In this document: one piece after another, positions 1 through 60,641 of the stretch
Position numbering within the stretch: position 1 is the first letter of the stretch
How the letters are laid out: the number at the start of each line of letters is the position of its first letter
From: Dictyostelium discoideum
Lineage: Eukaryota
Direction of reading: 5' to 3'
DNA: 64,000 bases
Assembly (NCBI GenBank): GCA_000004695.1
Contig: CM000154.2
Location: forward strand, 3,008,001 to 3,072,000
Notes under the pieces: model-generated
What the model was told of the DNA's origin: nothing
The model's input: the letters and a program-made list of their open reading frames with translations, nothing else
The model's database searches: none
Made by a program: the position numbers and the translations under genes

Positions 1-594
1 TTATTACAATTTAATTTTATATTTTATTGGAATATCCCTACTATAATAAAACTTAAAGTCTTTTGAAACTTTCATTCTTTTTTTTTTTTTTATCCCAATA
101 TATATAATATCCCAATATAGATAATATCCAATAATAACCTTTGAAAATTAAAATTTTTTTTTTTTTTTTTATTTTTTATTTTTATTTTTTTATTTTTTTT
201 TTTTTTTTATTTTTTATTTTTTTCAAAATATTTTTTTTTATTTTTTATTTTTTTTTTTTATTTTAGTGTTTTACCTCATTCGGTAGATAACAGAAATTTA
301 TCTAACACTTTTTATTAGAAATGGAGAGTGGAAGATAAAAAAAATAATAAAAAAAAAAAATCAAAAATATTAGTTCTAGCTTTTTTTATATAAATATTAA
401 TTTTAGGTGTTGAATCATTAATCAAACGTTATTGTTAAATGTTTAAAAATAAATGTTAATTTTGATCATAAAAAAAAAAAAAAAAAAATTAATTAAATTA
501 TTTTTGTTTAAGGGGTTATTATTATTTTTTATTTTTTAATTATCAAAGTAATTGTATTATATATAAAATCTATTTTTTTTTTTTTTAGACTTCG

Positions 595-2724: not shown

Positions 2725-2795
<71 letters not shown>

Positions 2796-3873
2796 GAATA
2801 GTTTTAATATCAGCCATTGGGAAATTTAAATTTTTATTCCAATTACTAAAATCTCTATTTGTTGATTTTGTTTTAAATTCTGTTAATAACCATTGAAATG
2901 TTGATATATTAAAAGTTGATAAACTAAATTGGTAAACTAATAGTCCATTTAATCCATTATCAATTATTTCACCATATTTTAAAAGATAGTTTTTATAAGC
3001 TAAAAAGTTTTTATGTTCGTTTAATAATTCTATTGAATAAAGTTTAAAAATTGTTTTAATTTTATCATTGGAAGTAGTATTTTCACATTGTAATATTTCT
3101 TTAAACTCTTTTGAATTTGAATTGGTTTCACCTGAAATTGTATAATAATAATTGATATTTAATAATTTAATTGATAATTCACTTGAATTTAAAGAAAGAA
3201 TATCAATTAAATCAATCTTTGCAATTTTATCACTACTACTTCTAGTTAAACCTATTGGTTTAATTGAGTATGTTTTTTCATTATCTAATATTAATTTTAT
3301 CATTTGTTCTTTATATTTTTCATTTGAGAATGCGAGTTTAATAGAATTGAATTTTATTTTATTTGAAATTTTTAAATTGGGTGAATTAATTAATAATTTT
3401 ACAATTTCAAATGATGAATTTGATATTGCCCATTCCAAAGTTTTCTCTCCAATATTGAATGAATTTGAATTAATTAGTTTTTCAATTATTTCAATTTGTT
3501 GTTCTTTATTTTTTGAAATTATTAAAAATAAAAAATCAAAATCAATTATTGATTTAATTTCAATACTCTTTTTTTCAATTAATAATAATATTAATTCCTT
3601 TTTTAATTCTTTATCTTTAATTAAAAGTAAAAGAGATATTGAGTATTTTGAAATCTCTAAATTTTCATTTAATTTTAATTTATATTTCAATAGTTGATAA
3701 TGTTTATTGACCAATATCCATTCTAATGAATTAACATCTTTAAATCTCTTTTTATTTTCTATATGAATTTGAGAGTATTCATTATATTCTTCCCATTCAA
3801 TATTTTTTATATAATTTAATATTTTATAAAATAAAACTTTGTTACGTATAATCTTCCAAAATAATATTTCCAT
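595..3873 (-). CDS. Large Asn/Ile/Lys-rich hypothetical protein (1092 aa), member of a lineage-specific paralogous family (tandem paralogue of 5032..8634)
   Basis: Uninterrupted 3.3 kb ORF with an ATG start (cat at 3871-3873 on +). Codon-level poly-Asn tract, AT-biased codons. The N-terminus ('ILFWKIIRNKVLFYKIL') and C-terminal block ('LIHHLSHSPSFNHKEF...LLEIKRLDLFFKELNYIQSLL') align with 'IFWKVIHNVYLLKLIL' and 'LIHEVSHLPYFNDKMV...LLEIKRVDLFFNELNYIQKLL' of the downstream paralogue. No known domain recognised. Confidence 0.7.
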
Positions 3874-4970
3874 TTCGGTCAGTCAATTTAAAATAAAAAT
3901 AAAAAAAAAAAAAAAATAATTTATAAAAAAAAATAAAAAAGTGATGGTTTTTTTTTTGTAAAAAAGACAAGAAAAAAAAAAGAAAATGTAAAAGTATTTT
4001 TTTTTTTTAATTTTTTTATTTTTATATTTATCAATTATCTTTATCTTTTTTTTTTTTTTTGGTTAACAGTTTTTTTTATTTATTTTTATTTGGGGATAAC
4101 TGATTCAAATTATAGTATACTTTTTTTTTTTTTTTTTTTTTTACAATCACTCTCACCAAAACCACCACAACCACCACAACTACCACAACCACCAACAAAT
4201 GTCGCTGCTTCCTTATCTCGCCAAGTGGCGCTTTATCTTATAGTTTCATTACAGTAACTCAATTCAATTTCATTAACTTTAATTGTCTTCTTGATTCAAC
4301 CAAAACCGATAGAAGAACTGATATTCCTAAAGATAAATACAAAACAGTCAATACATAATCATATTGTATCAAGATGATCATCCCACCAGCACATTTTCAA
4401 CAAGTTATTCGATCTCAAGATTCTCCATTTTCAACAAGTTATTCGATCTCACTACCGCATCTATTATTAATGCCAACCTTGGTTTCATTTCACCTTTGAC
4501 TGTTGATAAACTTGCTTGGTTTGATCCATTTACCAACATCTCCCAACATTACCATGACAAATTTAGATTTACAAGGAAAACCAATCAACTGTTAAGGACT
4601 CAAATGGATTCCACCAATTTGTTAATGGTAACTATTGTATGAATGGAAATTATAGATTCGATAACAATCAAAACCAGCTCCAGTTACAAATCAATCCAAA
4701 CAGAAATCAATAGACCAATCTTGTTTAGTTCACAATCTCCTATAATACTCGCCAAGATAACAAAGAAAATCACCAAGTCAAAATGATAAAAAATAAGTGA
4801 TTTATCATTAGTTTTTATTATTAAATTTTAATAAAAACAATAACCGATCCGATAAAATTAAAAAATAACAAAAAACTAACAATAATAAAACTAATAAACA
4901 TTATTTAAATTTAAAAAATGTTAATACATATAAAATTTTAATTTTAATTTTAATTTAATTTTTTTAATTT

Positions 4971-5025
<55 letters not shown>

Positions 5026-5031
5026 CTAAAA

Positions 5032-7952
5032 TTACAAAAGCCAACTAATGAATCTAAAAGGATGGTGATTTTCTTTTGAGTTTAATTTTTGTGACAATTT
5101 TAATTTTAAAAATTGTATATTATCTTGATTTAAATAACCAAAATCATATAAATAATTTACAAAATTAAAATTAGAGGTTTTATATGCTTGATTTAATAAT
5201 TCATCATCAATTTGAAAATAATAATGGTTTGGAAAATTGTTTAAAACTAATTCTCTTAAGGGAATATTAAACTTTCCAGATTTATTCAATTTTTCTAAAA
5301 TTAAATCCATTAACTCACTATGATTATTATTACCAAAAAAAAAATTTGAATATTTAATTATTGTATTTTCGCTAATGTTTATATTAAAAACTTTATACCA
5401 AAAGTTTTTTAAATTATCATCATTTTGAGTATTAATTATTTGATTATTAATAATTTGATCGATTAGTTGTGAATGATCTAAAATTAAATCTAAAACACTT
5501 TTTGAAGATATTTCTGAATATTTAAAATTTTTAGTTTTACTTAAATAGTCTATAAATGAAAGATATGAATATGATTTTACAAATACAGAAAATGTATGAG
5601 TATCCATTAAAAACAATAAAGTTTTAAAAATAAATGGTGAAATAGGAAAATAAATAAAGTAACCATCATCTTTGATTAATTCATTATAAACATCCCTTTT
5701 AAAATAATTATTTTTTGTATTATTATTATTATTATTATTATTAATATCTTCTTGAATTTCATCTGGTATTTTTAAAAGTTTCGAGAAAGAAACTAATGGA
5801 ACTGTTTTATCTTTTAATAGTTTTTGAATGTAATTTAATTCATTAAAAAATAAATCTACTCTTTTAATTTCTAAAAGGTATTCTAAATTATAATTAAAAG
5901 TTTTAAAAAGGTAATTGTTTTCATGAATTACCATTTTATCATTGAAATAAGGTAAATGTGATACTTCATGAATTAATCTTTCTAAAACTATTGAAAATGG
6001 AGGTGGTTGAGCAAATTCATTTAAACTATTACTATTATTACCAAAAATGAATTCCCAAGTAAAGATATTTGATTTTAAATATTTTCCAATATCATAACCA
6101 TTATGATCATATATCTTTTCAGAATTATAATTTGGTATATTTTTTGATTTTAAAAGTTTTCCAATGAATGGTAATTTTATTAAGTATTGAATAAATTCTT
6201 GTGATTTTAATCCTAAATAATAAAAACTATGAAATAGAGAATGTTCTAAACTTATTGAATTATCTAATATTAATCTACGAATTTTTTCAACATCTTTAAA
6301 TTTTACATCATCAATTTTAATTAAACATCTAAATAAACGGTTAATTAATTTTTCTAAAATCTGATTATCTTTTGATGTCGTTGTCGTTGTTGTTGTTGAT
6401 GTTATTTTAAAGGATTTTATTAATGTTTCAATACATTCAATAACATGTTTTGGATTTTGACAAGTTGTTGGAACATAAACTTGATAATAATCATTATCAT
6501 TCATTTCTCCAGTTTCATAATAATAATCTTCATATATATATGAAAGAATTGAATTATTTGTAAATAATGAATCTAAATCTAATTTTGATAATGATGGTAA
6601 TAAAATCATTTGAAAATCATTTGAAAAACCATTCACTAGTTTAGTCATTAAAAGTGGTGATAATTCGTCAAATTTCTTTGAATATTGTTGAAATTGATCA
6701 TTAAATTTAATTTTAATTTTATCACTATTAAATTTAAAATCAAATAAAAACTTTTCAAATGTTTTTTCATTAAATGCTTTATAACCACTGTCATTTAAAT
6801 AATTTATTAATTTCTCTTGATTTTCAATTGTTGTGGTTTCATTTAAATTATTAAATGAATCTTTAAATTCTCTTTTATAGATTTTATAATAGCTATAATT
6901 TTCATCCGAATTTTGATTACTACTAAAAATCATATCATTTTCAAGTTTAAAACCCAATACATTTTCATCAATGAATTTTAATGTTTCAATATCATAATTA
7001 TTAATTGCATTGATATAAGTTTGATGATATAATAAACATTTGTAGAAATAACTATCACCATTTAAACTCTTTGGATAATATAGTATTGATGATTTGTCTG
7101 AAAATGCATCAATTGCATATTGTATTAATTCTAAACTTTCAAATTGAAATAATTCTCTAGTTGTAAAACTTCTTAATTTCTCTTTTAATAGGAATCCATT
7201 ACAATTCTCTAATATCCAATCAAACTTTTCTTTATTATTAATATAGATTTTTGAATAATTAAAACCCCAATTAGATAAATCAATTAAAACTTGATTCCAA
7301 CATTTTGGATATAAACTAATTGGTATTGAATTGATTTTACTATTTGGTGAAATTGAATTATAAACTCTTTCATATTCTTCACTTGTTTTTGATGATAATA
7401 AAAGTTGTTTAATTTCTTGATCAACATCTATATTTCTAAATGCAAGACATTCACTTTGTTTTGTATAGTATTCAATAAATTCATATGTAGATTCAAGTTC
7501 TCTTTTAATATTATTTTTTTTATTATCTAATGATATACTTTCAATTATTAGTTTTACTGTTAAGAAATTAAATGATGCTTTTTTATCTTTATCTGATGTT
7601 ACTGTTTTTGAGATTACCCATTTAAAAGTTTTTGGTTCAAAATTTAAAAAACTAAATTGAATTACAATCTCTAAATATTCAATATCTAAATCTTCAATTG
7701 GTTCAAAATATTTTAAAAGATAATTTTTATAATTATTTTTATCTTTTTTTACTAATATCTTAAAAACTTCTTTTATTTTATTTTCACTCTTATCATTTTT
7801 AATAATTTCTTTAATTTCATCATGATTTGAATTGTTGAAATAATTTAAATTTAATAATTGATTTATTATTTTTGAATCTTTTATAAATAGAAATTTATTT
7901 ATATCTGGAATTTTTTTTATTGATTGAAAGTTATTAAAATCATTATTATTAT

Positions 7953-8816: not shown

Positions 8817-10382
8817 TTATTTTTTTCCAATATAATAATTATTATAGTCATTTAATATAATATTTCTTGAATTTGAATTTGAAAAAGGACCAATCATTCT
8901 GTAAAAAGAAGGATGAAATAATAGATTCCAATTTATATTATAAAATAAAGAATCATTTTCTTTTAATTTGTTAAAATCTGGAAGTGCACCAATTTCTTTA
9001 GCAAGATCATCACAAAAATAAACTCTATTTGGTAAAGCAAATTGTGGTCTACTATGTTTTTCATTTCTCTCTCTAATAATTTCAACATTTTTTATTTCTT
9101 CGAGCATTATTTCTTTAGTTGGTAATTTTGAAATACCAGCGAATCCATAAATTGCAAAACGTGCTTGACATTCCATTTCAGAAAAAACTGGTGTTCTATA
9201 CATTCCAATGAATGCCATATTATCTAAATGTGGTGATAGTGTATGTTTATATAAAAGTATTGGTAAATGAGGTACTGATAAATTCATTGAAATCTTTTTT
9301 TTAATTTCATTGTCAAAAAACGGTAAATCAATATCATAACCAACGCAAGTAATTATATCATCAACATTATCAATTATTTCAATATTTCCATTTGAATCTT
9401 TAAAAATCATTTCATTACCATTACAATCAATTAAAGTATTTTCAACCACCTTTATTTTATCAAGTTCTAAACATTTAAAAAAGGTGTCTGAAAATATATA
9501 ATAATGAGATTGATTTTCAGGTTTTTTATATTTAAATAAATTATTTTCTCTTTGATTCTCTGACGCTAAATTGAAATAAGAATCCGTCATTTTATTGATT
9601 TCTTCAATTGTTTTTTTACTTTCATAAATCATTGATCTTTTTTGGAAACAATAATCTACATGTGGTATATTTTCTTTATCTATTGGGTATCTTCTTTTAA
9701 ATATATAAACTGAATCTCTACAATTTAAATAAACCATTTTTGCTTTTTCAGCAACTGCTGATGAAATTTCAATTCCACTTGAAAATCCACCCACAACTAA
9801 AACTCTTTTATCAATAAAGGCATTTGGATCTTTAAATTCATCAGATGACCAAACTTTACCATTAAATTTATTTATTAATTTATCTTTGATATCAATATCC
9901 CTTTTTTTACTAAACATTCCAGTACAAATTATTACATAATCATAAATTTCTTCATGAATTTCTGATTTTTCTTTAATTTTATTTGATTTTATTAACCATT
10001 GGTTTTGGTCATTTTCACAAACTTCTGATATACTAATAACGTTTGTATTTAATCTTGTTTTTTCTAAAACTTTGAAATGTTTTGAATAATCATAAAGATA
10101 TTTAAACATTTGCTGTTTAGTTGGATGAAATGGTTTTTCATTTTCTTCTTCCCATATAAAATCTGAATAACTCATTGAAACATAAGAAATATGAGTTTTC
10201 ATATTATCCCATGCTTTACCACTTTCACCAATTGACCAAACTCCACCAATATTATCATTCTTTTCAAATAATACTACATCAAATCCACATTCTAATGCTG
10301 TTTTTGCACTAACAATACCACTTGGTCCAGCACCAATAACTGCAACTTTTTTATTTCTTTTTATTTCAATATTTTCATTCAT
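8817..10382 (-). CDS. Flavin-containing monooxygenase (FMO)-like FAD/NADPH oxidoreductase (521 aa)
   Basis: N-terminal 'KVAVIGAGPSGIVSA' FAD-binding GxGxxG, 'NIGGVW' FMO-type motif and a second dinucleotide fold 'VLVVGGFSSGIEIS'. The overall length and order are typical of FMO/Baeyer-Villiger-type monooxygenases. Confidence 0.7.
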   Translation of the reverse strand: MNENIEIKRNKKVAVIGAGPSGIVSAKTALECGFDVVLFEKNDNIGGVWSIGESGKAWDNMKTHISYVSMSYSDFIWEEENEKPFHPTKQQMFKYLYDYSKHFKVLEKTRLNTNVISISEVCENDQNQWLIKSNKIKEKSEIHEEIYDYVIICTGMFSKKRDIDIKDKLINKFNGKVWSSDEFKDPNAFIDKRVLVVGGFSSGIEISSAVAEKAKMVYLNCRDSVYIFKRRYPIDKENIPHVDYCFQKRSMIYESKKTIEEINKMTDSYFNLASENQRENNLFKYKKPENQSHYYIFSDTFFKCLELDKIKVVENTLIDCNGNEMIFKDSNGNIEIIDNVDDIITCVGYDIDLPFFDNEIKKKISMNLSVPHLPILLYKHTLSPHLDNMAFIGMYRTPVFSEMECQARFAIYGFAGISKLPTKEIMLEEIKNVEIIRERNEKHSRPQFALPNRVYFCDDLAKEIGALPDFNKLKENDSLFYNINWNLLFHPSFYRMIGPFSNSNSRNIILNDYNNYYIGKK

Positions 10383-10844: not shown

Positions 10845-11348
10845 CTATATAATATCATCAATTTTTAAAAATGTTGTTGTAATTTTATAATTCTTTTTTG
10901 GACCCAAAACTGAATAAATTAAATTAAATTCTTTTGGTGATATTAATTGATAAATTGCATCGTATGTATCATTCCCACAAAGATGATGACCTTTTGCTAA
11001 TGAAGAGTTATTGAAATCTAATGTCTGAAATAATCGTTCTGGTTTCTCATCAAAATAAACTGAAATTATATCATCCTTTAATCTATAGATATACCTTTGA
11101 CTAATATTAAATGTTGTATTATCTGGTTGTTTTAATATTCCCTCCTCTTGATATTGATATGAAAATTCGTCATTATCTAATTGTTTAAATGATGCTATAC
11201 CTGAAACTATTGATATATCATTACTATTATTATTATTTTTATCAATTGTTGAAAATGTAAATTGTTGTGATACATCTATTACTGATTTATGAACAATTTT
11301 TCTATTAAAACTCCATTTTCCTGCAAATGATTGAAATACTTTGAGCAT
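10845..11348 (-). CDS. Small hypothetical protein (167 aa)
   Basis: Clean ORF with an ATG start and typical codon usage, flanked by AT-rich intergenic DNA. No domain recognised from sequence. Confidence 0.45.
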   Translation of the reverse strand: MLKVFQSFAGKWSFNRKIVHKSVIDVSQQFTFSTIDKNNNNSNDISIVSGIASFKQLDNDEFSYQYQEEGILKQPDNTTFNISQRYIYRLKDDIISVYFDEKPERLFQTLDFNNSSLAKGHHLCGNDTYDAIYQLISPKEFNLIYSVLGPKKNYKITTTFLKIDDII

Positions 11349-11825
11349 TTAAAAATATTATTTATTTTATAAAAAATAAAAAAAAAAAAATTGAAAAGTG
11401 AAAAAAAAAAAAAAAAAAAAAATTGTTTTGATTAATTTTTAAAATCTAACATATCTGGTTAGCTGAAGGTGTTGGATTATTTCTAAAAAATAAATATTTT
11501 TCATTTTTTTTTTTTTTAGTATAATAATAATAATTCATTATAAAAATTAAAACTTTTAAATTTCAATTTTTTATTATGTCCACTCATTTATCTTTTTTTT
11601 AAAAAAAATAATTAAAATAATAAATGAAAATATGAAATTTATAAAACACAAAAAAAAAAAAAATAAACCAATTCAAACAATATTAAAAAATAAAAAACAT
11701 AATCCTATATCAAAGTATTAAAAAAAAAAAAAAAAAGAAAATTCAAAAATTATTATTATTTAAAAAATAAAACAAATAAATAAAATTATCTATTATTTTT
11801 TTTTTTTTTTATTTTTTTTTTATTT

Positions 11826-12149
11826 TTAACTTTGTGGTGGTACTGGCTCTAAAACTTTAATTAATAAGTCCAATAGGTCAGATCTTGTTACCATTCCAAT
11901 TAAACGACCTTTTTTATCTAATACGGGTAATCCTCCTACATTTGTAACTCTCATTAATTTTGCTGCCTCTACAACTGGAGAAAAATCTTCGATAGTAACT
12001 GGATTTTGTTTCATAATAGAAGAAACTTTGTGAAGTCTTAATTTTTCCAATCTATCTTCATTATTCTCTGGAAGAAATGGTGAATCAGTTGCTAATCTTA
12101 AATCTCTATCTGTGATAATTCCTTTTAGATTACCTAAATAAATTAAAAA

Positions 12150-12196
<47 letters not shown>

Positions 12197-12394
12197 AGTT
12201 TTCTTTTTTAAAAGTATAAAGTTTATACTTTTTTTATAATTAATAAAATAATTACCGTCATTGTCAACTACTGGTAATCTATGAATTGAATTGGCATTTA
12301 AACTTTTTAAGGCAACATCTAAAGTTGTATCTAAATTAATAGTAAATAATGATTTACTCATTAATTGTTTAACTTTTAAATTGGATTGGTTCAT
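11826..12394 (-). CDS. Two-CBS-domain protein, 2 exons: join(12394..12256, 12133..11826), about 149 aa
   Basis: Exon 1 'MNQSNLKVKQLMSKSLFTINLDTTLDVALKSLNANSIHRLPVVDNDG' is the first CBS motif. It is followed by GTAATT, and a 122-nt AT-rich intron (12134..12255) ends in TTTATTTAG. Exon 2 '...GNLKGIITDRDLRLATDSPF...PVTIEDFSPVVEAAKLMRVTNVGGLPVLDKKGRLIGMVTRSDLLDLL' is the second CBS motif. The track split this into two ORFs (12143..12394 and 11826..12050). Confidence 0.6.
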
Positions 12395-12453
12395 TTTTTA
12401 TAAAGAAATTAAATATATGTTAATGTTTTATTATTTTAAAAGAAAAAAAGAAA

Positions 12454-12485
<32 letters not shown>

Positions 12486-13099
12486 AACTTACCAAGAACT
12501 TTCATAGTAATTATTTATTTTTATTTTCAAAACAAAAAAAAAATAAATTAAAAAAAAAAAAAAAAAATTAATAAAAAAAAATAAAAAATAAAAAGTAAAT
12601 AAAAAATAAATTAAAAATAAATAAAAAATAAATAAAAAATAAATAAAAAATAAAAAATTTAAAAAAAATAATTAAAAAAAAAAAAAAAACAATAAAAAAT
12701 TTAAAAAAAAGGGGTGAAGATCACCGATTAGGAAATTTATTAATAAATAATAAATTTCATTTAATGTGTTTAAAATATTCATTGTATTTTATAATGATCA
12801 ATTATCTTTTTTGCAATTTAAAAAAAATAAAAATAAAAATAAAAAAAAAAAAAAAAAGATAGGGACAAAAATAAAAAAAACAATAATTAAAAAAAGATAA
12901 ATACTGCTCTATTTTATTTCTAATGTTTAAAAAAAAAAAAAAATTAAAAAATAATTGGATACAGATAAGAAAATAATTAAAATAATGGTGTTCTAATTTT
13001 ATATTTATTTTTATTGTTATTATTTTATTTGTTTTATTATTATTGTTATTATATTATTTTTTTTTTTATTTTATTTTTTGTAATTTTTTAAAATTACAT

Positions 13100-13460
13100 T
13101 TAGAAATCATCTAATTCAATCTTTAAATCTACTTCTATTGGTCTAACTTTAGTATTATTTGAACTACCACCACCATAAAAAGATTTAGAATTACCACTAC
13201 CACCACTGTAAACACTCTTTGGCATTGAGAGTGCAAACTTATCATTATTCTCTGGATCATCTCTTGTATCTAAATAGGCAATTATATCACCATCCTTTAA
13301 TAGATATGGCTTACCTCTTAATTCTAAAACTGTTGAATTTTCTTTCTTTTTATTTGAAGGTGGAGGTGGTGGAGGTGCTGGTATTGATTTATTATCTATT
13401 TGTTCAGTTTCAACTATTGATACAGATGATGATGATGTTGTTGAGTTTATTGTTGTTGTT

Positions 13461-13494
<34 letters not shown>

Positions 13495-16400
13495 CTGTTG
13501 TTGTTGCTGTTGTTGAGTTTATTGAGTTTATTATAGTTTCAGTTTCTACTATTGATACTTTATTATTATCAACCGATTCAATGGTAACAGTTGAAGCATT
13601 TTGTTCAGATTGTTGTGGTTGTTGATCAACATCTTGAGGAGCACCACAACAAGCATCAATAATAACAATATTATCTAAAGCCACTGAACTACTAGATGAT
13701 GAAGATAATGTTTGTCTTTCTTCAATTATTCTCCATGGATTAGTTTTATTATTTGGGAAATACTTGTAAAGACGTAAGAATTGTTGATCGATATCAAAAG
13801 TGACTGAAATTTGATCAGTTAAATCTTTAATAGTTTTACCTTTGAAAGTGATTTGTTTTGCAGGATATTCAAAAGATTGTTCTTGTGGTACTCTCTTATG
13901 AACATAAAGTAATAACGGTGGTACTAATTTAACAAAACTAGTTGAATGTTGTTGAATATGATTTGCACCATTTAATTCATTAACTTTTTCAAGTAAATTA
14001 CCATTTGGCTCATCATAATCTTCAATTATATTTTGTTGTTGTTGGTCAATTTGTTTTGTATAAATTTCAATTGTAATTGAAGATTCTAAATGAATATGAA
14101 GTTTTGATAATGGTTTATTAAAAGAATTTAATAATTTTTCATCTAACCAAATTCTAATATCTTGTTCTTCCATATTAATAAATGATTGATTTAAAAATAA
14201 ATCCCAATTTAATAATTGATTTTTCAATTGTTGTAGAGTTATCTTTTTATCAGCCCAAAGATCACCAATTGGTATAATTGTGAATAAATCTGGTACCATT
14301 GGAATATAAGTTGGATTTAGATGAAGTATTGGTGAAGAAGGTACTGGTAAACATTGAGAAATGTTATTAATTTGGTAAAGTTTAACCTTTAATAGAATTT
14401 GATCTTTTGAAGGTAGTACACCCTCTTCTAGCCAAACGATATCCATTGATTTTATACCAGACTCTTCCAATGTCATATCCTCCTCAATGAATACATTGAT
14501 TGGTTTCTCAAAGAGATCAGTTTGTCTAAGTATATAACGATTTGAAAACTCTTCATTGATTGACAACTGTTTCAATATCTCCTTTTTCAATTGAGTGATG
14601 GTAGTTTGCTTTGAAGAAGAATTGGTAGTCAATAATTTTGGATCAGGGAAAACTGCTTTCTTATCGATTGCATAGAGATATTTAATAGAGAGATTTGATT
14701 TGGCGGGTTGTCCCTTCTCAAAGATTACCAATGAAGTATCGACGATATTTGCTTCTTTCAACATTAAACTATCGTCAGAGATACCAGTACCTTCATAACC
14801 ACCGACTAAAGTTTTTCTAATTACAGTTTGATCCAACCAAACCTTCTTTTGATTTGGATAAAGCATATCGAATATGGTCTCTTTCAATTGATAGATTGTA
14901 CTCTTTGGATCGGATAACACACGTACTGGTGGTGATTCAGTGAGTGGTGCACTAGTGGTTCTAAAACGATCTTTAACAAATATTTGAATCTTTGATTTAT
15001 TCAACTCGAAATCTTTTTTAACCAAACTACTAGATTGATCCAATGAATCTGATCCACCAATACTTTCAACATCGAATCCCTCTGGTAAAACCTCACACAA
15101 TATACTAATACCATTATAAATTCTTTGAGAGAATTTCAAATCCATATCATCCTCCAATGGCAATAAACAAGTTTGAGATGGCATCATATAGAGTAGCAAT
15201 CTATTTGGTGTTACCCTCTCATTGGTAAACATTAACTGATTAATACCATCACAAATTGTATCTTTAAATTGTTGAAAACTTGACTCCCTATCCACCATTA
15301 AATTCAAATCTTTCATTAAATAATCCACTGTTACCGATGATACAAATGAATCGGTAACGGTTTCATTCTCTTTTTCAATTTGTTCTTCTTCATCACAAAC
15401 CGTCGCATCCATTAAATTTGATAAACCTTTTGATTTATGATAGAAATATCTAACAGAGAATTTAATTGGTATATTTGATTTATCTTCACCCTTCCAAATC
15501 AATAATTGTGAACCCTCCCTAATACCAATCTTTTTAATGTTAACACTTGGTGAAGCTTGAATGGGTGGTTGTAAAATGATTTTACCATCTTTTACATAAC
15601 ATTCTTGAATTACGATACCACATTGCTTAGTTTCAATTTCAATTGACTCAATTTGATTTTTATACTTTTCTCTAATTAAATTAAATAAATCCTCTGTTGT
15701 ACTTGATACATCGATTGCCAATGACTCTCTTTCTCTTTCTCTATCTTTCTCTTTAATATTATTTTGAATATCATAAATCAGTCCATCACGAATTATAACA
15801 CTATCAATGAATCTTGGTTGTATATACATTGTATTCATACTTTTATCATAATCAATTCTTTCATTTACAATACTCTTATTAAATTCTGATATTTCCTTTT
15901 CAAAATGTGATGGTATATCCTTAAACTCCATTTTATCTCTTAATGCTACTGATCTATAAACCAACATATAAGCACATTCATCTTTACCACCAAATTGTCT
16001 CTTTAAAACATTATCTTTAATTGGTAAAACACTACTATCATTAAAATCAAACCAACCTGTAAATTTATTACCTTCTTCATCATTTTCTTCATCATTTTCT
16101 TTATTTTTATTTAATTTTTCTTTTTTTTCATTTTCTTCAATTTTATTATCTGATGCTGTATTTGTTGTTGTTGTTGTTGTTGTAGTATTTGTTGTCGTTG
16201 TTGTTGATGTATTAATATCTTTATCTTGTTGTTGATCAACTTTTAAAGTTGAATTACCAATTGATTGAAGATCTTTAATATAAGAATGATAATGACCACC
16301 AAAAGCACCACCACTATGAATTAAAACAGAGAACAATTCATAATTTAATTTCTCTGGTTCTGGTGTTGTATCAGGATTCTCTTTATGTTGTAAATAATCA

Positions 16401-50470: not shown

Positions 50471-50612
50471 TCGAGGTCAGATGGTGAAGTTACTTTTTTT
50501 TTGAATTGGATAACGCAATTATTAGTTGCTTCTCCTTGAGATACTAGATCCCATTTTATTTTTAGTTTTTTTTTTTTTTTTTTTTTTAAAGGGTGTATAA
50601 AAGAGGGGTTAG

Positions 50613-50657
<45 letters not shown>

Positions 50658-51061
50658 TTTCGAATTTTGAATTGTATTATTACTTTTGATTAAAACATCT
50701 TTTTTGTCCAAATTTTTTTCTAAATCTTTTTTTATTTTATCATCAGCTTCATGATTGATGTTGATGACATATTTGAATTGTTTTTTTTTTGTTTGAGTTT
50801 TATCCACAATTTCCCTTATTTTTTGTAGGCATTTGTGTTGCTTAATATTTGTGGGGTTGTTTGTAATTTTCATCTTTTTTTCTTTCTATTTTTTTTATTT
50901 TACTTTGAAAAGTTAAAAATCTGGAAATTNNNNNNNNNNNNNNNNNNNNNNNNNNNNNNNNNNNNNNNNNNNNNNNNNNNNNNNNNNNNNNNNNNNNNNN
51001 NNNNNNNNNNNNNNNNNNNNNNNNNNNNNTTGGAAATTTCCTGATTAACTTAGGTTCCCCG

Positions 51062-51113
<52 letters not shown>

Positions 51114-51397
51114 TTTTTTATTTTTTTTTTTTTTAAGTCTTTTTTATATGAAAAATGAAACAATCAAAAAAAGAGATTGTTGTTGTTGTTTGTTTTTTCG
51201 ATCTGATTATTTTTTGCTTTTTTTTTGAAAATTTTCAAAACGAAACAAATAATAAATTACAACAAAGTAAAAAGATGGCTTTTTAAAATAGTTTATTTAT
51301 TTATTTATTTGTTTTTTAAGTCTTTTTTATATGAAAAATGAAACAATCAAAAAAAGAGATTGTTGTTGTTTGTTTTTTTCGATCTCTGATGGTGAAG

Positions 51398-51438
<41 letters not shown>

Positions 51439-51526
51439 AATTGGATAACGCAATTATTAGTTGCTTCTCCTTGAGATGTTAGATCTCATTTTATTTTTAG
51501 TTTACAGGGTCTCTAAGAGGGGTTGG

Positions 51527-51565
<39 letters not shown>

Positions 51566-51855
51566 TTTCGAATTTTGAATTGTATTATTACTTTTGATTA
51601 AAACATCTTTTTTGTCCAAACTTTTTTCTAAATCTTTTTTTATTTTATCGTCTGGTTCGTGATTGATGTTTATGACGTATTTGAATTGTTTTTTTTTAAT
51701 TGAGTTTTATCCACAATTTCGCTTATTTTTTGTAGGCATTTGTGTTGCTTAATATTTGTGGTGTTGTTTGTGATTTTCATTTTATTTTCTTTCTATCTTT
51801 TTATTTTTCTTTAAAAAGTTAAAAATCTGGAAATTTTCTGATTAACTTGGGTTCC

Positions 51856-51908
<53 letters not shown>

Positions 51909-51970
51909 GGTGAAGTTTTTTTTTTTTTTTTAATAACATCACTCAATTTGAGTGTGTTCTAGGAGAGTTT

Positions 51971-52019
<49 letters not shown>

Positions 52020-52134
52020 CTTGTTATTCTTATTTTTTTTATTATTATTATTATTATTATATTATTATTATTATTATATTATTATTATTATATTATTATT
52101 ATTATTATATTATTATTATTATTATTATTGTTAT

Positions 52135-52140
<6 letters not shown>
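50471..52140 (-). mobile_element. Non-coding, poly(A)-punctuated repeat modules of a non-LTR retroelement cluster (TRE-like, oriented on the - strand); at least two copies of a unit of about 480 bp plus internal 65-bp direct repeats
   Basis: 50481-50929 and 51381-51860 are near-identical ('gatggtgaagttac-T(n)-gaattggataacgcaattattagttgcttctccttgagat..-T(n)-..gtttcgaattttgaattgtattattacttttgattaaaacatc...gtaggcatttgtgttgcttaatatttgtgg..'). Each is subdivided by long poly-T runs, which are poly(A) on the - strand. 51137-51203 and 51320-51380 repeat 'aagtcttttttatatgaaaaatgaaacaatcaaaaaaagagattgttgttg'. The short - strand ORFs (for example 50586..50873, which reads through poly-A as poly-Lys) are not credible genes. 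Confidence 0.55.
50930..51029. other. Assembly gap (100 N)
   Basis: A run of 100 'n' characters inside the repeat cluster. The true copy number and length of the repeat array are therefore unknown. Confidence 0.99.
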
Positions 52141-52169
<29 letters not shown>

Positions 52170-53332
52170 AGTAGTTGGTGTTATATGAGCAGTATGGTAT
52201 GAAGTGTTCCGGGATGTTTATGGTCATGAGTTTCGAGTTCCAGTTGTGGCTGAATTTTTCGAGTCTTCTTTTTATTGATGCGGTCCGATTGATTGACTCT
52301 CGGTTATCAGTGCATCTTAGTTCTTGACGTAGTTGTTTTTCTACTATCTTTCTTGTTCTATCCCATTCGGCATCTCTCGCTTTTTTGATTTTATGAATTA
52401 TTTGGTTCTCTGTTATTATTGTAGTGTTATCGTTGAATTTTATTTGATTTCTTCTGTACCATATCGATTCCATAATGGCTCCTATCAGATTTGATGAGAA
52501 TGGTGTGAGTAGTTTTCCGAGAACTTTTTCGCTCCATGGACCGTGGTAAGTGTTGTTGGAGTCTTTACAGACCTTTTGATAGATTGAGTCGATATTCTGT
52601 TTTATTGATTTGCATTCGAAGAAGATGTGCATAGACGATTCTTCTTCTTTACATGAGTGGCAATTCTCCCCATGGTGTTTTGGAAGTGCCTTGATTAGAT
52701 ATCTCCATGCTAAGTCTCTTCCTTTGATAGTTGTGATTGATCTGGCTTCTCTAAATGGTAGAATTGGGTGATTAATGTTCTTTTGAATCAGTTTTTGACC
52801 TGTTGTTGGCTGGTGTTTGTTCCATCCCTTGTATTTGATATCCATCATGTTTCTATAGATTACTTTTAATTTTTGTTTGTTTTCGTATTTGGGTTTGACT
52901 TGGTTTAGTTTGAGAGTTATTCGCTCTCTTGGGTGGTGCAACAACTTCCAGGCTTTCCAGCATTTGATGTGAATCCTTGATAGTGAGTTTTCTTTTTCCG
53001 ACTTCCAGACTTCCATATGTGGAGGGCAGTTCTGGTCGTCTTTTTCTCTGAGGTATTGTTCGTATATCCATGCTTTCTGGGCATTGGATCTGGTTGCCAT
53101 ATTCCAGAGTTCCAGGCCTCCAATTTCATAGTCTCTTCTGCTCCTTTCTTTTGAGATAGCCCACCTGTCCCCTTTGAATAACATGTTGGCATTAACGTTC
53201 TCCAGTTTCTTTATGTCATTTATTTCGTTGATGTATAGTTGGAATGTTAGTTGGGACAGGAGGTATGATTTGAGGATTGTGATTCTACCTTTTAGCGTTG
53301 ATGACACGCTCGAGTAGCATTGGTGAAGTTAC
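52141..53332 (-). mobile_element. 5'-truncated non-LTR retrotransposon: ORF2 C-terminal fragment (380-aa ORF 52165..53307) ending in TAA followed directly by a 26-nt poly(A) tail
   Basis: The ORF has atypically GC-rich, non-host codon usage. It contains a Cys/His knuckle 'HHGENCHSCKEEESSMHIFFECKSIKQ' typical of LINE ORF2 C-termini. The stop is followed by poly(A), seen as T26 at 52141-52166 on +. The 5' end abuts the motif GTAACTTCACCA (53332..53321) about 45 bp upstream of a tRNA gene and in opposite orientation. This is the classic arrangement of Dictyostelid tRNA-gene-targeted TRE5-type elements. Confidence 0.6.
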
Positions 53333-53364
53333 TTATAATACTACGATAGCAATAGATTTTGCAA

Positions 53365-53438
53365 GGTCAGATGGTGTAGTCGGTTATCACGGTTGCTTTA
53401 CACGCAACAGGTCTCGAGTTCGATCCTCGGTCAGATCA
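53365..53438 (+). tRNA. tRNA-Val(UAC): tRNA-Val (anticodon UAC), 74 nt
   Basis: Hand-folded cloverleaf. Acceptor GGTCAGA/TCAGATC (one A-A mismatch at 5:68) and discriminator A. D-arm GTGTAGTCGGTTATCACG, nearly identical to the eukaryotic tRNA-Val D-arm. Anticodon stem GTTGC/GCAAC with loop TTTACAC (anticodon TAC). Variable loop AGGTC. T-arm TCGAG-TTCGATC-CTCGG with an intact A-box (TGGTGTAGTCGG) and B-box (GGTTCGATCC) for pol III. Confidence 0.75.
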
Positions 53439-54084
53439 TATGTTGGTATAAATTTGTGTATTTTACGAACTTCGGGTTTTACAGGTAAAAAAAAAAAAAC
53501 GAACTTCGGGTTTAATGCCAATATTGATATAAGGAACACAATTAATATTAAATGAATGCTGTTAAACCTGAATCAAAACTAACTTTATTTTTTCAGTTTT
53601 CATAGTTTTCGAGTTTTAGTTATTTTCGAGAAGTTTCTAAAATATATAAAACTAAATAAATTAATTATTTTTATTATTATTGTTTGCAACAGTTGGTTCA
53701 AAACATTGGTGGCAAATAACTAGATACAAAAACAATAAATGTTTTAATAGAATTACACCTATAATTCCTCCAAATATAATATATCATGAGGTTAACATAG
53801 ACTACTCAAAGAATACTTTGAAGGGTATAAATTTGTAAATTATAATTTCTATATAATGTCTTTGATAATTCATAACATTTGGATTCAGGTATAGTAATAA
53901 AAAATCAAAAAAATTAAATCAAACTGTTTAGAGACCCAAAAGATTTCCTAAACAAATAATAAAATTAAGAAAACTATTCAAGTGTCAGAGCTTCCAAACA
54001 TTTTTACTTTGACTAATTCATTTTATTAATTTCATTTTATTATTAAATTTATTTTAATTATTTTATTGATTTAAATTTAAATAC

Positions 54085-54302: not shown

Positions 54303-55884
54303 TTATCTTTTTTCTTTATTTAATTTTGAAATTGCCCAATAACCACTTACAAAAAAGAAACAAATCCACAATATAATAATACCAATACCTTTTTGAAGTG
54401 TCCAATCTTCAAGATTATAAAATTTTAAAACATCATTACCATTTGGGAATTGACAAAAATCATTTGGACATTCTAATGGATAATCTTTAAATTGAGCGAC
54501 CATTACAGTTGCATAACCATAGTATAAAGGATTTAACCAATGGATCCAACCAAAACTTTTTGGTAATTGTTTCACAGGAACTAAATGGCCCATAAATAGT
54601 AAAAAAGTAATTGAAATTGTTGTACCATAAATAAAAGTTAAATCAGATTTACCAGTTATATTAGAGATTGCAATAATATATAAATCTGATAATAAATTAA
54701 TTAAATATAAAATGAAATAAGTAATGAAAAAGCTTGAAAAATTCCATCTTAAATGATTAATTGTATAAACTAGTAATGATACGATTAAGGAAACCAAAAA
54801 TTGAATAAATGCTTCAGTTGTAATTGTTGATAGATAAAATGGTAGAGAATGATAAATTTTTGAAGCTCTTTCTGAATTGAAAACTTCACGATTTGATAAG
54901 AACAATGTAATACATGTAAATGGTATTAAGTTTAAAACTGCAATTAAAAAGAATAAAATACCAGAAATTTTTAAAACATCCTCTTGACTTGGTGATAATG
55001 TACCAAAACAGGCGGAAAATAATAAACCAATCATAAAACCACCAGATAAACGTGTAATATATTGAGTTGAATTTCTAAAGAAATCTTTGAAATTTCTATT
55101 CAATAAAATTTTATATTGATATAGTAATGAGCAACTTTTATTTGGTTCAATTGAACGATTAAAAGGTTGAATTCTTGAAACTGCCAACATATTATCTCTC
55201 CAATTGGTTTCCCATGATTCACAAATTTCTTCATAATGATCACATTCGGAAATTTCATGACATGTATCCAATATGAAATCTGCAGGATTTGTATAGTTTG
55301 GACATTGATATTGATTTGGTAATGATGAAAGATAATTTAAAACATCATTACCACAATAAATCATTCTACCTTTTAACATAATCATAATTTTATTAAATAA
55401 ATGATAAATTTCTGGACGTGGTTGATGAATTGAACAAATTACAGTTACACCTTTAATTACGGTTAAATTCATTAAAACTTTCATAACTTTTAAAGCATTT
55501 AATGAATCTAAACCACTTGTAGGTTCATCTAAAAATAATAAAGATGGATTTGTAACTAATGCACAACCAATTGAAACTCTTTTCTTTTCACCACCTGATA
55601 AACCTTTTACAATCATACCACCAGGTAAAATACCACCAATTTTTGATTTTGATTTTTTTGTTAAACCAATATCTTTTATTACTTGTTCAACAACTTTCCA
55701 TTTATCTTGATCACTTAAACCTGGTAATCTTAAATCTGCATGAAATTTTAAAGTTTCTTCAACTGTTGAAGTTTGTAATAATATTTCATCTTGAGTTACA
55801 TAAGAACAATACTAATTTAAATTTTAAAATAAAAAAAATTTAAAAAAATAAAAAATAATTAATATAATTAAATAAATAAATAAA

Positions 55885-55920
<36 letters not shown>

Positions 55921-56459
55921 TTTTTATATGCATCTCCAATTTCTTTACCATTAACTAAAATTTTACCACTAATTGTACCAGTTGATTTTCTATTTGCAAG
56001 AATATCTAATAATGTTGATTTACCACTACCAGAAGGACCAAATAAACCAACCATTTCACTTTTTTCAATTATACCACTAACATTTGAAAGAATTGTAATT
56101 TCCTTTTCAATTTTACCATTTGTTGTTGATCTTGTTTGTTGTGGATTCATTGATTGATCAATTTTTGAAATATTTAAACTATTTGTTGGTAAAATCGATG
56201 ATCTTGATTGTTGTGGGGTTTGTAAACCTGATGCTGAAGATTCAACATCATATGATGAATTTGAGTTAGAAGAGTTAGATCTTTCCATTTCCAATTTTTT
56301 TTTTCTTTTTTTTTCATCTTTTATTTGTTTTTTATAATTTCTATTTTCAGTTTTATAAGAAATATTTTCAAAAATAACTTGAACACCAATATTATTATCT
56401 GAATTTAAATTTGTTAAATTATTATTATTATATGGAAAATTTGGGGTTGATATTTCTGA

Positions 56460-56490
<31 letters not shown>

Positions 56491-56506
56491 AAATTATAAT
56501 TATCAA

Positions 56507-56563
<57 letters not shown>

Positions 56564-56858
56564 CAATATTATTATAATTGTTACTATTATTTTTATTATT
56601 GTTATTATCAATATTATTGTTATTATCAATATTATTATCAATATTATTAATATTATTAATATTATTATTAGCAATATTATTATTATTATTATCAATATTA
56701 TTATTATTATTTCCAATACTATTATTATCTATATTATTATTATCAATATTATTATCAATATTATTTTTATTATGAATACTATTAGTATCAATATTAGTAT
56801 TATCAATATTATTATTGATGTTATTACAATTTGTATTATTTATTGAAATAACTTCCAT
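54303..56858 (-). CDS. ABC transporter G-family half-transporter (NBD-TMD), 2 exons: join(56858..55920, 55811..54303), about 815 aa
   Basis: Exon 1 has an Asn/Ile/Asp low-complexity N-terminus, then Walker A '[24 protein letters not shown]...GDAYKK' ending at AAG|GTAAAA. A 108-nt intron ends in TTAAATTAG. Exon 2 '[30 protein letters not shown]...[40 protein letters not shown]' carries the ABC signature and Walker B, followed by a 6-TM ABCG-type domain ending '...[13 protein letters not shown]'. It is colinear with the intronless paralogue at 58245..60641. Confidence 0.7.
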
Positions 56859-58244: not shown

Positions 58245-60428
58245 TTATCTTTTTTCTTTATTAAATTTATAAAGTCCAATATAAGCTAAAATATAAAAAA
58301 ATGCTATCCAAATTGTTAAAATACCAATTGATTTATTATATTCCCAATTTTTTAAACCTAAAAATTCAATTAAATTATTACCATTCGAATAAAGACATGG
58401 TATTGGTGGTTGAGGACATTGAAATTCAAAATCTCTATATTGAATGATTACTATTGATGAGAAACCATAAAATAGATAATCAATATGATGAATCCAACCA
58501 AAACTATCAGGTAATGAATTAATTGGTACTAAAAATCCGGAGAATAATACCAATACTACTGATACACCTGTACAATATGAAAATGTTAAATCAACAGTTC
58601 CAGCAATATTTGACATTGCTATTACCATAAAAACTGATGCTAAAAATACCATATAAAATGAAATCAATGATAATATATATGCTTCAAATGACCATCGCAA
58701 ATGAACAATACAATAAATTATTGTTGTAATAATTAATACAACAAAGAATGATGATACAATTTCAATTAACATTGATCCTATAAAATAAGGAAATGGATGA
58801 TAGATTTTTGATGCCCTTTCAGAATTAAATAAAGTTCTAATTGAAACAAATGTTGAAATACTTGAATATGGTAATAAATTTAATGAAGTTATAATAAAGA
58901 AAAATAAAGCTGATACTGATTGAGCCTCATTTTGATCCAACCCATCATAACCAACTGTCCCAAAACATGCAGAGAACAATAATCCAATTAATATTGCAAT
59001 TACAATCTTTGAGAAAAACACTACCCTATTCCTCACAAAACTTTGATAACTTCTTTTTTGACAAACCCAATATTGATAAATGAAACCAACTCTCTTTGGT
59101 ATATCAATATTAATTGGATCATTGGAAATGGTTGGCTGTATTTCATGTTTCCAATATTTTTCCCATGTATCAACAGTTGTTGAATATTGAGATGGATTAT
59201 TAACAATTTCATCACATACATCCAATATGAAATCAGCAGGATTCATTTGTGGTGGACATTTATAATTTGAATCTATACTTGAGAGATATTCTAAAATATT
59301 TGAACCACTATAAACCATTCTCCCTTTTAATACAACCATAATATTACTAAATAAATAAAAAATTTCAGGACGTGGTTGATGTACTGAGCATACAACTGTT
59401 ACACCTTTCATTTTAGTTAACTCTAATAAAACTTTCATTACTTTTAATGAATTTAATGAATCTAAACCACTTGTAGGTTCATCTAAAAATAATAAAGATG
59501 GATTTGTAACTAATGCACATCCAATTGAAACTCTTTTCTTTTCACCACCTGATAATCCTTTTACTATCATACCACCCGGTAGAATACCACCAATTTTTGA
59601 ATTTAATTTTCTATCTAATCCAACATCTTTTAAAACTTGTTTAATTCTTATATCTTTTTCAGTATCTGTCATATCTGGTAACCTTAAATCTGCATGAAAT
59701 TTTAAAGTTTCATAAACTGTTGATGTTTCTAAAAACACCTCTTCTTGAGTTACATATGAACAAAACATTTTATAAGCTTCACCAATTTCTTTACCATTTA
59801 CTAATATTTTACCAGTGATTGTACCTGTTGATTTCCTATTTGCAAGTATATCCAATAATGTAGATTTACCACTACCTGATGGACCCATTAATGCAACCAT
59901 TTCACCTTTTTCAACAATACCACTAACATTTGATAAAATTGTTAATTCCTTCTCAATAATTCTATCAATTGGTAATTTATTAACTTGTGATTCAATATCT
60001 TCAATATCAATTTTACCAGATTCTAATTTTTTAATAATTTTTTTTTGTTCATTATATTTTTTATTTAAAACTTTATAACAAATATTTTCAAATGTAACTT
60101 GAACTCCAACATTATTATTAATATTAATAATTTCATTATCATTTGATCTACCATTAGTAATTTCATTATTAAAAGTACCACTTGAATCACTATTAATACT
60201 ATTCCTTCTATTTTCAATGTTTTTAATTTTTGTTTGAATTCCACTTTCAATATCTTTATTATTATTATTACTATTACTATTTAAATTTGAATTATCTGAA
60301 ATTAATTTTTCACTTAAATTGATTTGTGGTGTTTGTGGTGATAAAGAGAGTGATGATAATGAATATTCATTATTTGGTTGCTTTGGATGTAATGTATTTA
60401 TTACTTCGTTTTTAAATTGTTGTTGTTC

Positions 60429-60517
<89 letters not shown>

Positions 60518-60641
60518 GATTTGATAAAATTTGTTCCTCATTTATATTATTTCTTGAATTTTTATCTTCAAAATTTTCATCATTTTTTTCATCAGACTTA
60601 TCATCAATAATTTCAAAATTATTATTTCCTATATCTTCCAT
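58245..60641 (-). CDS. ABC transporter G-family half-transporter (798 aa), intronless paralogue of 54303..56858
   Basis: Poly-Gln N-terminal extension. Walker A '[21 protein letters not shown]'. '[30 protein letters not shown]'. ABC signature and Walker B '[33 protein letters not shown]'. C-terminal 6-TM domain ending 'LYKFNKEKR'. The single ORF has an ATG start. Confidence 0.75.

Follow-up and report, generated by a model that had tools for sequence, protein, structure and literature searches.

Why are several retroelement pieces, separated by copies of one short motif, stacked directly upstream of a single tRNA gene? The question is raised by a stretch of Dictyostelium discoideum DNA (assembly GCA_000004695.1, contig CM000154.2, forward-strand positions 3,008,001 to 3,072,000; GC content ~20%), whose full 64 kb we call the window and number from its first base. 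Here a pile-up of retroelement sequence without long terminal repeats (non-LTR) precedes a tRNA-Val(UAC) gene. Our answer, to which we give a probability of roughly 90%, is that TRE5-class non-LTR retrotransposons have struck this tRNA gene three times at the same site. The identities of the elements, their termini, orientation and distance from the gene, the copies of the target-site duplication (TSD) and the closure of an assembly gap between them were all observed directly.

The tRNA-Val(UAC) gene had been called in a first-pass annotation of the sequence, and was recovered by ARAGORN as the sole tRNA gene of the 64-kb window (53365-53438, + strand); it matched the Rfam tRNA model over its full length (54 bits, gathering score 29). 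Both of its boxes are intact: the A box (TGGTGTAGTCG, at +8) agrees with TRRYNNARYNG and the B box (GTTCGATCC) with GTTCRANNC, the consensus of D. discoideum tRNA genes (PMC5391098). The retroelement pile-up annotated directly upstream was resolved into three TRE5-class copies (E1, E2 and E3), with termini placed to the base (Table 1), all on the - strand and with the 5' end toward the tRNA gene. Outward from the gene, the - strand reads: 32-bp spacer, GTAACTTCACCA, E1, AACTTCACCAT, E2, GTAACTTCACCAT, E3, GTAACTTCACCAT and unique flank. The hallmarks of non-LTR elements are present, namely poly(A) tails (14, 36 and 9 nt in E1, E2 and E3 respectively), 5' truncation (E1 and E2) and TSDs. The poly(A) tails are distal to the + strand tRNA gene, which is also the orientation at L001, L003, L004 and L007; these belong to the comparison loci (L001-L007) reached by look-ups of homologous proteins or, for L002, via a neighbouring 353-aa gene.

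Between the nearest base of E1 (53320) and tRNA +1 (53365) there are 44 bp, head-to-head, and the proximal motif copy ends 32 bp from the gene; the 13-nt TSD of E2 and E3 places the original insertion site 45 bp upstream of tRNA-Val. These measurements bear out the first-pass annotation, which had set the last motif copy about 45 bp upstream, head-to-head with the gene, and had likened the arrangement to position-specific TRE5 integration about 48 bp upstream of tRNA genes. According to published work, TRE5 elements integrate upstream of tRNA genes at a distance of 47 +/- 3 bp, their 5' end always toward the tRNA 5' end; in the reference genome the distances range from 37 to 211 bp, and one tagged element inserted 46 bp upstream, in tandem with a resident TRE5-A.1 (PMC5391098). 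Distance and orientation at tRNA-Val fit this published rule. The TRE3-class position (~100 bp downstream of a tRNA gene) is not occupied: all TRE-like sequence found in the 64-kb window is upstream of the gene, at 50491-53317.

E2 and E3 are built from TRE5-A modules. TRE5-A.1 has the published order AB-ORF1/ORF2-BC (ORF, open reading frame), with an A-module of ~200 bp, a 290-bp B-module which contains the ORF1 start and is duplicated in the 3' untranslated region (UTR), and a C-module of 134-137 bp (PMC3159450). The A-, B- and C-modules of E2 and E3 are 92-99% identical to those of full-length TRE5-A copies and are no unrelated satellite. Compared with the 3' B-modules of TRE5-A.1 copies (L005, L007), the B-module of E2 has 99.3-99.7% identity and that of E3 93.5%, the latter being likewise 93.5% identical to E2; E2 is a young copy, E3 an older one. 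Two near-identical units of about 480 bp had been annotated; both exist, as E2 and the B-C part of E3 (within 50494-51063), but at 88-96% identity by segment they are similar rather than near-identical. The C-module bases T15, C26, A35 and C38 (from the 3' end), which are the positions mutated in a C-module study (PMC3159450), are all present and lie in two predicted hairpins of the last 54 nt; residue 10 of the B-module ORF is, moreover, the published Ile.

The A-module is missing from E2 owing to truncation. E3 starts with CAGAGATCG, the 5' terminus of other full-length copies ((CA)GAGATCG); its 183-nt A-module carries a 16-nt deletion and is followed by a 71-nt partial A-module and an A-run, and the two A-modules together (51135-51388) are ~92% identical to the 199-nt A-module array of L006 and to L007. 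The one B-module of E3 (ORF1 start plus 70 codons) runs straight into an A-run and the C-module, with no ORFs. By coding content, ORF1 plus ORF2 denotes TRE5-A.1 and ORF1 only TRE5-A.2, and neither state was found in E2 or E3; judged by their modules they are ORF-less TRE5-A derivatives or fragments, not TRE5-A.1 or TRE5-A.2. A complete protein is encoded by none of E1, E2 and E3.

Related arrangements were seen at the comparison loci. An ORF-less A-B-C copy like E3 lies upstream of tRNA-Phe at L004 (7792-8396). L005 carries a full-length two-ORF element of TRE5-A.1 architecture (444-aa ORF1; 1047-aa ORF2 with RVT_1 at residues 397-638; then A-run, 292-nt module, A-run, ~112-nt module and poly(A)), and its positions 1-6347 form a TRE5-A tandem, ...ORF2-An-B-ORF1-ORF2-An-B-C, in which one B-module is shared. 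The structures suggest that the L005 tandem and the ORF-less A-B-C copies (L004, E3) are reciprocal products of B/B recombination or copy-choice. At L006, about nine tandem A-modules (the promoter module, 199 nt; 4511-6194) precede one 292-nt B-module and ORF1. No name for the ORF-less A-B-C form was found in the literature searched, where 'TRE5-A.3' likewise had no mention.

E1, the element next to the tRNA gene, is of a different kind. Its 380-aa ORF (52165-53307, - strand) aligns to residues 663-1038 of the 1047-aa ORF2 of TRE5-A.1 with 36% identity (E = 2e-72) and retains the C-x2-C-x7-H-x4-C knuckle (CHSCKEEESSMHIFFEC vs CQQCGEDETSEHIFFNC in TRE5-A.1), so that the similarity to ORF2 of long interspersed elements, on which the first-pass reading depended, is there. 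That reading of E1 as a 5'-truncated ORF2 fragment ending in TAA-A26 holds as to ORF2, but the A-run into which the TAA stop runs has ~28-30 nt, not 26. The aligned part begins directly after the RVT_1 domain (397-638 of TRE5-A.1 ORF2): only the part behind the reverse transcriptase (RT) and the CCHC knuckle survive, endonuclease and RT having been truncated away, and homologues extend N-terminally into RVT_1. A Pfam scan of the 380-aa ORF gave no match, and the homology came only from direct comparison with Dictyostelium ORF2 proteins; all its protein homologues are from D. discoideum or D. dimigraforme.

With a full-length two-ORF element of L001, situated behind the inner resident copy in a stack upstream of tRNA-Phe, E1 shares ~80% aa and 77-82% nt identity, (AAT)n tract and tail included, and an unusual 3' UTR (A-run, (AAT)n, A-run, 46-nt hairpin tail). 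Identity to the C-module-bearing (TRE5-C-like) copies L003, L004 and P0001 is 54% aa and ~64% nt. At the 3' end of E1 no B- or C-module similarity was found; TRE5-C has a C-module directly after ORF2 and no 3' B-module, while E1 is without a C-module. In the literature, TRE5-A and TRE5-C have a C-module but TRE5-B has none (PMC3159450, PMC4559204). E1 appears TRE5-B-like by exclusion, as it has no C-module and differs from A-type and C-type copies.

A 27-nt mini-insertion at L007 (14804-14830) consists of TGAGTGATGTTAATAA plus A11, that is the last 16 nt of an E1-type 3' tail plus A11, and sits exactly 47 bp upstream of tRNA-Ser with its own 12-bp duplication GTCATCGAAAAC. By its structure it is an almost completely 5'-truncated retrotransposition event. 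This short copy, with its TRE5 distance and TSD, shows the tail to be a genuine TRE5-type 3' end.

The same motif bounds all three elements. GTAACTTCACCA is found exactly on the - strand at 50482-50493, 51390-51401 and 53321-53332 and, with the shortened AACTTCACCAT, four copies of GTAACTTCACCA(T) bound three elements. The first-pass annotation had put the motif at 50494, 51394, about 51913 and 53332: there are indeed copies at these four junctions, three of them exact, but the one at 51907-51917 is shortened. Four motif matches at up to one mismatch occurred in 0 of 100 dinucleotide shuffles (shuffle mean 0.15); the fourth match of that search, at 39055, has one mismatch and is unrelated. At the TRE5 termini of six other loci (at least eight termini) the motif did not occur. 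Locus-specific repeated TSDs were present there instead: TTCATTACAAA twice at the tRNA-Phe gene of L001, GCTGTCATCGATGAC twice plus GTGTCATCGA at a tRNA-Ser gene of L007 (where the first element starts 47 bp upstream), and CAGaTATTAGAAAT at L004, whose A-B-C element has gone into a resident TRE5-C-like fragment, within its first 14 nt. Because the motif is absent from TRE5 ends elsewhere, which carry their own duplications, it is target DNA and not element sequence. The comparison supports what had been proposed at first pass, that the motif is a TSD regenerated by successive insertions into one landing pad.

The assembly gap noted at first pass is present as 100 N inside the E3 B-module, but it is an artefact, because a second assembly reads through it and the contig ends flanking it overlap. 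The corresponding locus L002, of D. discoideum assembly GCA_054883475.1, is collinear with the window, from which it differs across the region in homopolymer lengths only; it runs gap-free from ...GTTAATCAGGA directly into AATTTCCAGATT..., where the window has ...CAGGAAATTTCCAA-N100-AATTTCCAG.... The flanking contig ends (50921-51038) share ~9 nt of the same bases (AATTTCCAG / AATTTCCAA, - strand). Thus the scaffold carries a small redundant overlap plus a spurious gap. The three elements and four motif copies stand in the same order in GCA_054883475.1.

Table 1. Features of the retroelement stack and the tRNA-Val(UAC) gene, in window coordinates.
Feature	Position	Strand	Basis
tRNA-Val(UAC), intact	53365-53438	+	ARAGORN, Rfam, A/B box consensus
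32-bp spacer between tRNA gene and proximal TSD copy	53333-53364	none	
TSD copy 1, GTAACTTCACCA, -44 to -33 relative to tRNA +1	53321-53332	-	
E1, 5'-truncated TRE5-B-like element	51918-53320	-	ORF2 alignment, 3' end comparison
E1: ORF2 C-terminal 384 codons with CCHC knuckle	52165-53320	-	
E1: A-run		-	
E1: (AAT)n microsatellite	~52040-52130	-	
E1: second A-run		-	
E1: 46-nt hairpin-forming 3' tail	51932-51977	-	
E1: A14 tail	51918-51931	-	
TSD copy 2, shortened AACTTCACCAT, GT replaced by E1 poly(A)	51907-51917	-	
E2, 3' end of 5'-truncated TRE5-A	51402-51906	-	B-/C-module identity
E2: TT at 5' junction, then A45		-	
E2: B-module	51565-51859	-	
E2: A32		-	
E2: C-module	51438-51532	-	
E2: poly(A) of 36	51402-51437	-	
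TSD copy 3, GTAACTTCACCAT	51389-51401	-	
E3, 5'-complete ORF-less TRE5-A derivative, A-A'-B-C	50494-51388	-	A-, B-, C-module matches
E3: A-module (183 nt)	51206-51388	-	
E3: partial A-module	51135-51205	-	
E3: A-run	51064-51134	-	
E3: B-module (N gap inside)	50657-51063	-	
100-N assembly gap inside E3 B-module	50930-51029	none	Comparison with L002
E3: A-run	50618-50656	-	
E3: C-module	50503-50617	-	
E3: A9	50494-50502	-	
TSD copy 4, GTAACTTCACCAT, runs on into original upstream flank	50481-50493	-	
Partial copy of tRNA-Val 5' end, AGGTCAGATGGTGAAGTTACTTA(T)	50474-50496	+	19/23 match to tRNA -1..+22 (53364-53386)

Could such a stack have formed without three insertions? Local tandem duplication or unequal crossing-over of one element with its flank would account for the common module order of E2 and the B-C part of E3, each followed by poly(A) and the same motif, and B-module recombination does occur in the family (the ...ORF2-B-ORF1... 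tandem of L005). Such an origin is nevertheless highly improbable: the E2 B-module is closer to copies on other chromosomes (99.3-99.7%) than to E3 (93.5%); E2 starts truncated at an A-run but E3 with a complete A-module; their poly(A) tails are unequal (36 vs 9) and their C-modules differ by an internal A-run; and E1, of another family, is bounded by the same motif. Because E2 resembles copies elsewhere more than it does its neighbour, E2 and E3 are independent events. There is also next to no likelihood that the motif is a conserved terminal sequence of the retroelements and not a duplicated target. It does always abut an element end, and the bases after it at the E3 5' end (TCAGAGATCGA) bear a loose resemblance to the distal flank (TCTGACCTCGA). 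However, besides its absence from the six other loci, the same element types are flanked elsewhere by unrelated, locus-specific duplications, other full-length copies start (CA)GAGATCG directly after their own TSDs, and the motif bounds elements of two different families. A pile-up produced by the assembly, with repeats collapsed or mis-joined at the N gap, might be suspected from the 100-N gap in a repeated module, the long homopolymers and the redundant contig-end overlap; yet the gap-free GCA_054883475.1 has the same elements, motif copies and order, with only homopolymer lengths differing, and an artefact of this kind is scarcely credible.

A further alternative looks to the target itself. 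The partial copy of the tRNA-Val 5' end was pre-existing in the target DNA, beyond the E3 poly(A), and once the empty site is reconstructed it lies 51 nt upstream of the gene; its A-box-like part agrees at 10 of 11 consensus positions, and the TSD lies inside it. The motif might on these grounds be a functional tRNA-derived sequence (a degenerate second tRNA-Val promoter half, or a pseudogene) which attracted the insertions, and at L007 each of the three tRNA-Ser(GCU) genes is preceded by tandem units of ~39-nt period (first 18 nt plus a 21-nt leader; 8818-8942, 11330-11410 and 14757-14850) inside which the TRE5 duplications fall. We consider this very unlikely, as i) a distance of 44-45 bp from an intact tRNA gene explains the site, just as at Phe and Leu genes without copies; ii) the copy is without the B box required according to the literature (PMC5391098); and iii) the insertions are within the copy, not ~47 bp upstream of it. 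Since their position is explained by the real tRNA gene, the 23-nt copy leaves the conclusion of repeated TRE5 insertion at tRNA-Val intact.

As to the origin of the upstream copy, template switching or 5' transduction was rejected (it lies beyond the E3 poly(A), in target DNA and in the wrong orientation), as was a plain tandem duplication of 51 bp, because the similarity at tRNA-Val stops after the first 23 nt. No upstream 5'-end copies were found at the tRNA-Phe, tRNA-Leu and tRNA-Ile genes examined. It is an unlikely, speculative suggestion that such copies are scars of duplication associated with RNA polymerase III (Pol III) complexes or with TRE5, or else auxiliary A-box-like sites which shape TRE5 cutting; scars could conceivably stem from abortive target-primed integrations whose widely staggered nicks were filled in without an insert.

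Three successive TRE5 insertions can be set out in terms of published work, mostly on TRE5-A. TFIIIC on the B and A boxes would position TFIIIB; the TRE5 ORF1 protein would contact TFIIIB; the ORF2 endonuclease would nick ~47 bp upstream of the tRNA gene; the RT would start on the 3' hairpin and poly(A) of the RNA and often copy it only in part (target-primed reverse transcription); and staggered second-strand cleavage would create a TSD of 12-15 bp. From a reconstructed empty site, ...ATCGAGGTCAGATGGTGAAGTTACTTATAATAC..., with one motif copy, E3 (the ORF-less A-A'-B-C derivative of TRE5-A) would have inserted first and now be distal, E2 (TRE5-A truncated to the B-C 3' UTR) second, and E1 (the last 1.4 kb of a TRE5-B-like element) last, now 44 bp from the tRNA gene. 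The same bases could be cut and duplicated again because the tRNA-proximal TSD copy keeps its distance after each insertion. We infer the order E3, E2, E1 from this fixed-distance rule, and the greater divergence of E3 than of E2 agrees with it. For the ORF-less copies there are two routes: mobilisation in trans, which has been shown for TRE5-A.2, or reduction following insertion.

Several points weigh against this account: i) the fixed-distance rule and the E2/E3 divergence are the only grounds for the order; ii) TSD copy 2 is shortened (10-11 of 13 nt), which requires a slightly shifted nick for E1, and a nick 2-3 nt further in, with E1 entering the proximal duplication of E2, would leave such a copy; iii) E2 could equally be a 5'-truncated A-B-C element and not a truncated full-length TRE5-A; iv) E1 is labelled TRE5-B by exclusion and is ~20% diverged from the only full-length relative found. 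A partly filled site was not found in other strains either, exact-protein look-ups with three neighbouring genes having led to one other assembly, with identical occupancy.

Further observations concern the stack at L001 and the surroundings of tRNA-Val. At L001 5127-5620 a non-coding block of ~495 nt (~50% GC), with GGGCCCTGATAGTGCAGTGG at its start, joins a TRE5-A B-module at about codon 7 of the latter, and a C-module comes next. The distance from the block to tRNA-Phe, which lies downstream of it, is 46 bp, with the duplication TTCATTACAAA, and a stretch related to the block was seen at L007 8098-8200. An Rfam scan of the block returned no family match; a chimeric retrocopy, or part of some other element, is a possible identity. 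At the same locus TRE5 copies are interrupted by two insertions that have terminal inverted repeats, one of ~575 bp resembling a miniature inverted-repeat transposable element (5825-6400; GGACCTATCAGTGAATAATTGA...), the other an AT-rich 2-kb insertion in ORF2 (11104-13123; ACACAGCAAAGAAAATCACACC...). In the window, the ORFs of 437 and 344 aa at 54303-56858 (- strand) are exons of one 815-aa gene according to the gene calls of the other assembly, with no Pfam family recorded, and the 798-aa ORF at 58245-60641 is a single-exon gene with no Pfam match. The 15-mer ACGAACTTCGGGTTT occurs twice 3' of tRNA-Val (53465-53479 and 53499-53513, 26 and 60 nt downstream). Two thirds of D. discoideum tRNA genes are reported to have an external B box in this downstream region; the 15-mer was rejected as such a box for its lack of a match to GTTCRANYC on the tRNA strand.

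TRE5 targeting, orientation, the ~47-bp distance and tandem formation beside residents are all published and already known, and the current understanding of TRE5 biology is unchanged by this locus. Its value is that of a clean natural record in which one integration site was used repeatedly, showing a gene-dense haploid genome confining retrotransposons to a 'safe' landing pad by Pol III genes. What it adds are the base-exact termini of three elements and their division between two families, the closed gap, and an ORF-less A-B-C form of TRE5-A alongside the reciprocal tandem form. The first-pass annotation is thereby refined, in that two TRE5 families are involved and the tRNA-adjacent element is TRE5-B-like and not TRE5-A.

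Among known systems, TRE5-A (formerly DRE) is matched by E2 and E3 in the B-module (292 nt, 93-99%), in a C-module with the essential 3' hairpins and, for E3, in the A-module as well; poly(A), TSDs of 12-13 bp, a 5' end facing the downstream tRNA gene and the landing of new copies between the tRNA gene and resident copies are likewise shared. E2 and E3 differ from TRE5-A in having no ORF1 or ORF2, E2 being 3' UTR only, while E3 has but one B-module, which links its 5' and 3' UTRs. The parallel for E3 is TRE5-A.2, described in the literature as non-autonomous (AB-ORF1-BC, 72 bp being deleted from the BC region). E3 is also non-autonomous, keeps the A-, B- and C-modules needed for transcription and 3'-end recognition, and would have to be mobilised in trans; E3 differs from it in lacking ORF1 and in a C-module of 115 nt, internal A-run included, against 87 nt. 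With TRE5-B, E1 and its L001 relative have in common the TRE5-type position and orientation, the lack of a C-module and of a 3' B-module that the literature describes, a 5' UTR related to the A' and B modules of TRE5-A, and an ORF1 weakly similar to that of TRE5-A, but E1 is 5'-truncated to the last 1.4 kb of ~5.2 kb. Beyond Dictyostelium, Ty3 of S. cerevisiae and other Pol III-targeted retrotransposons similarly land on Pol III factors, notably TFIIIB, and thereby spare the genes of a compact genome from insertions. Ty3, however, is an unrelated LTR element that employs an integrase and inserts at the transcription start, whereas TRE5 elements use target-primed reverse transcription ~47 bp upstream.

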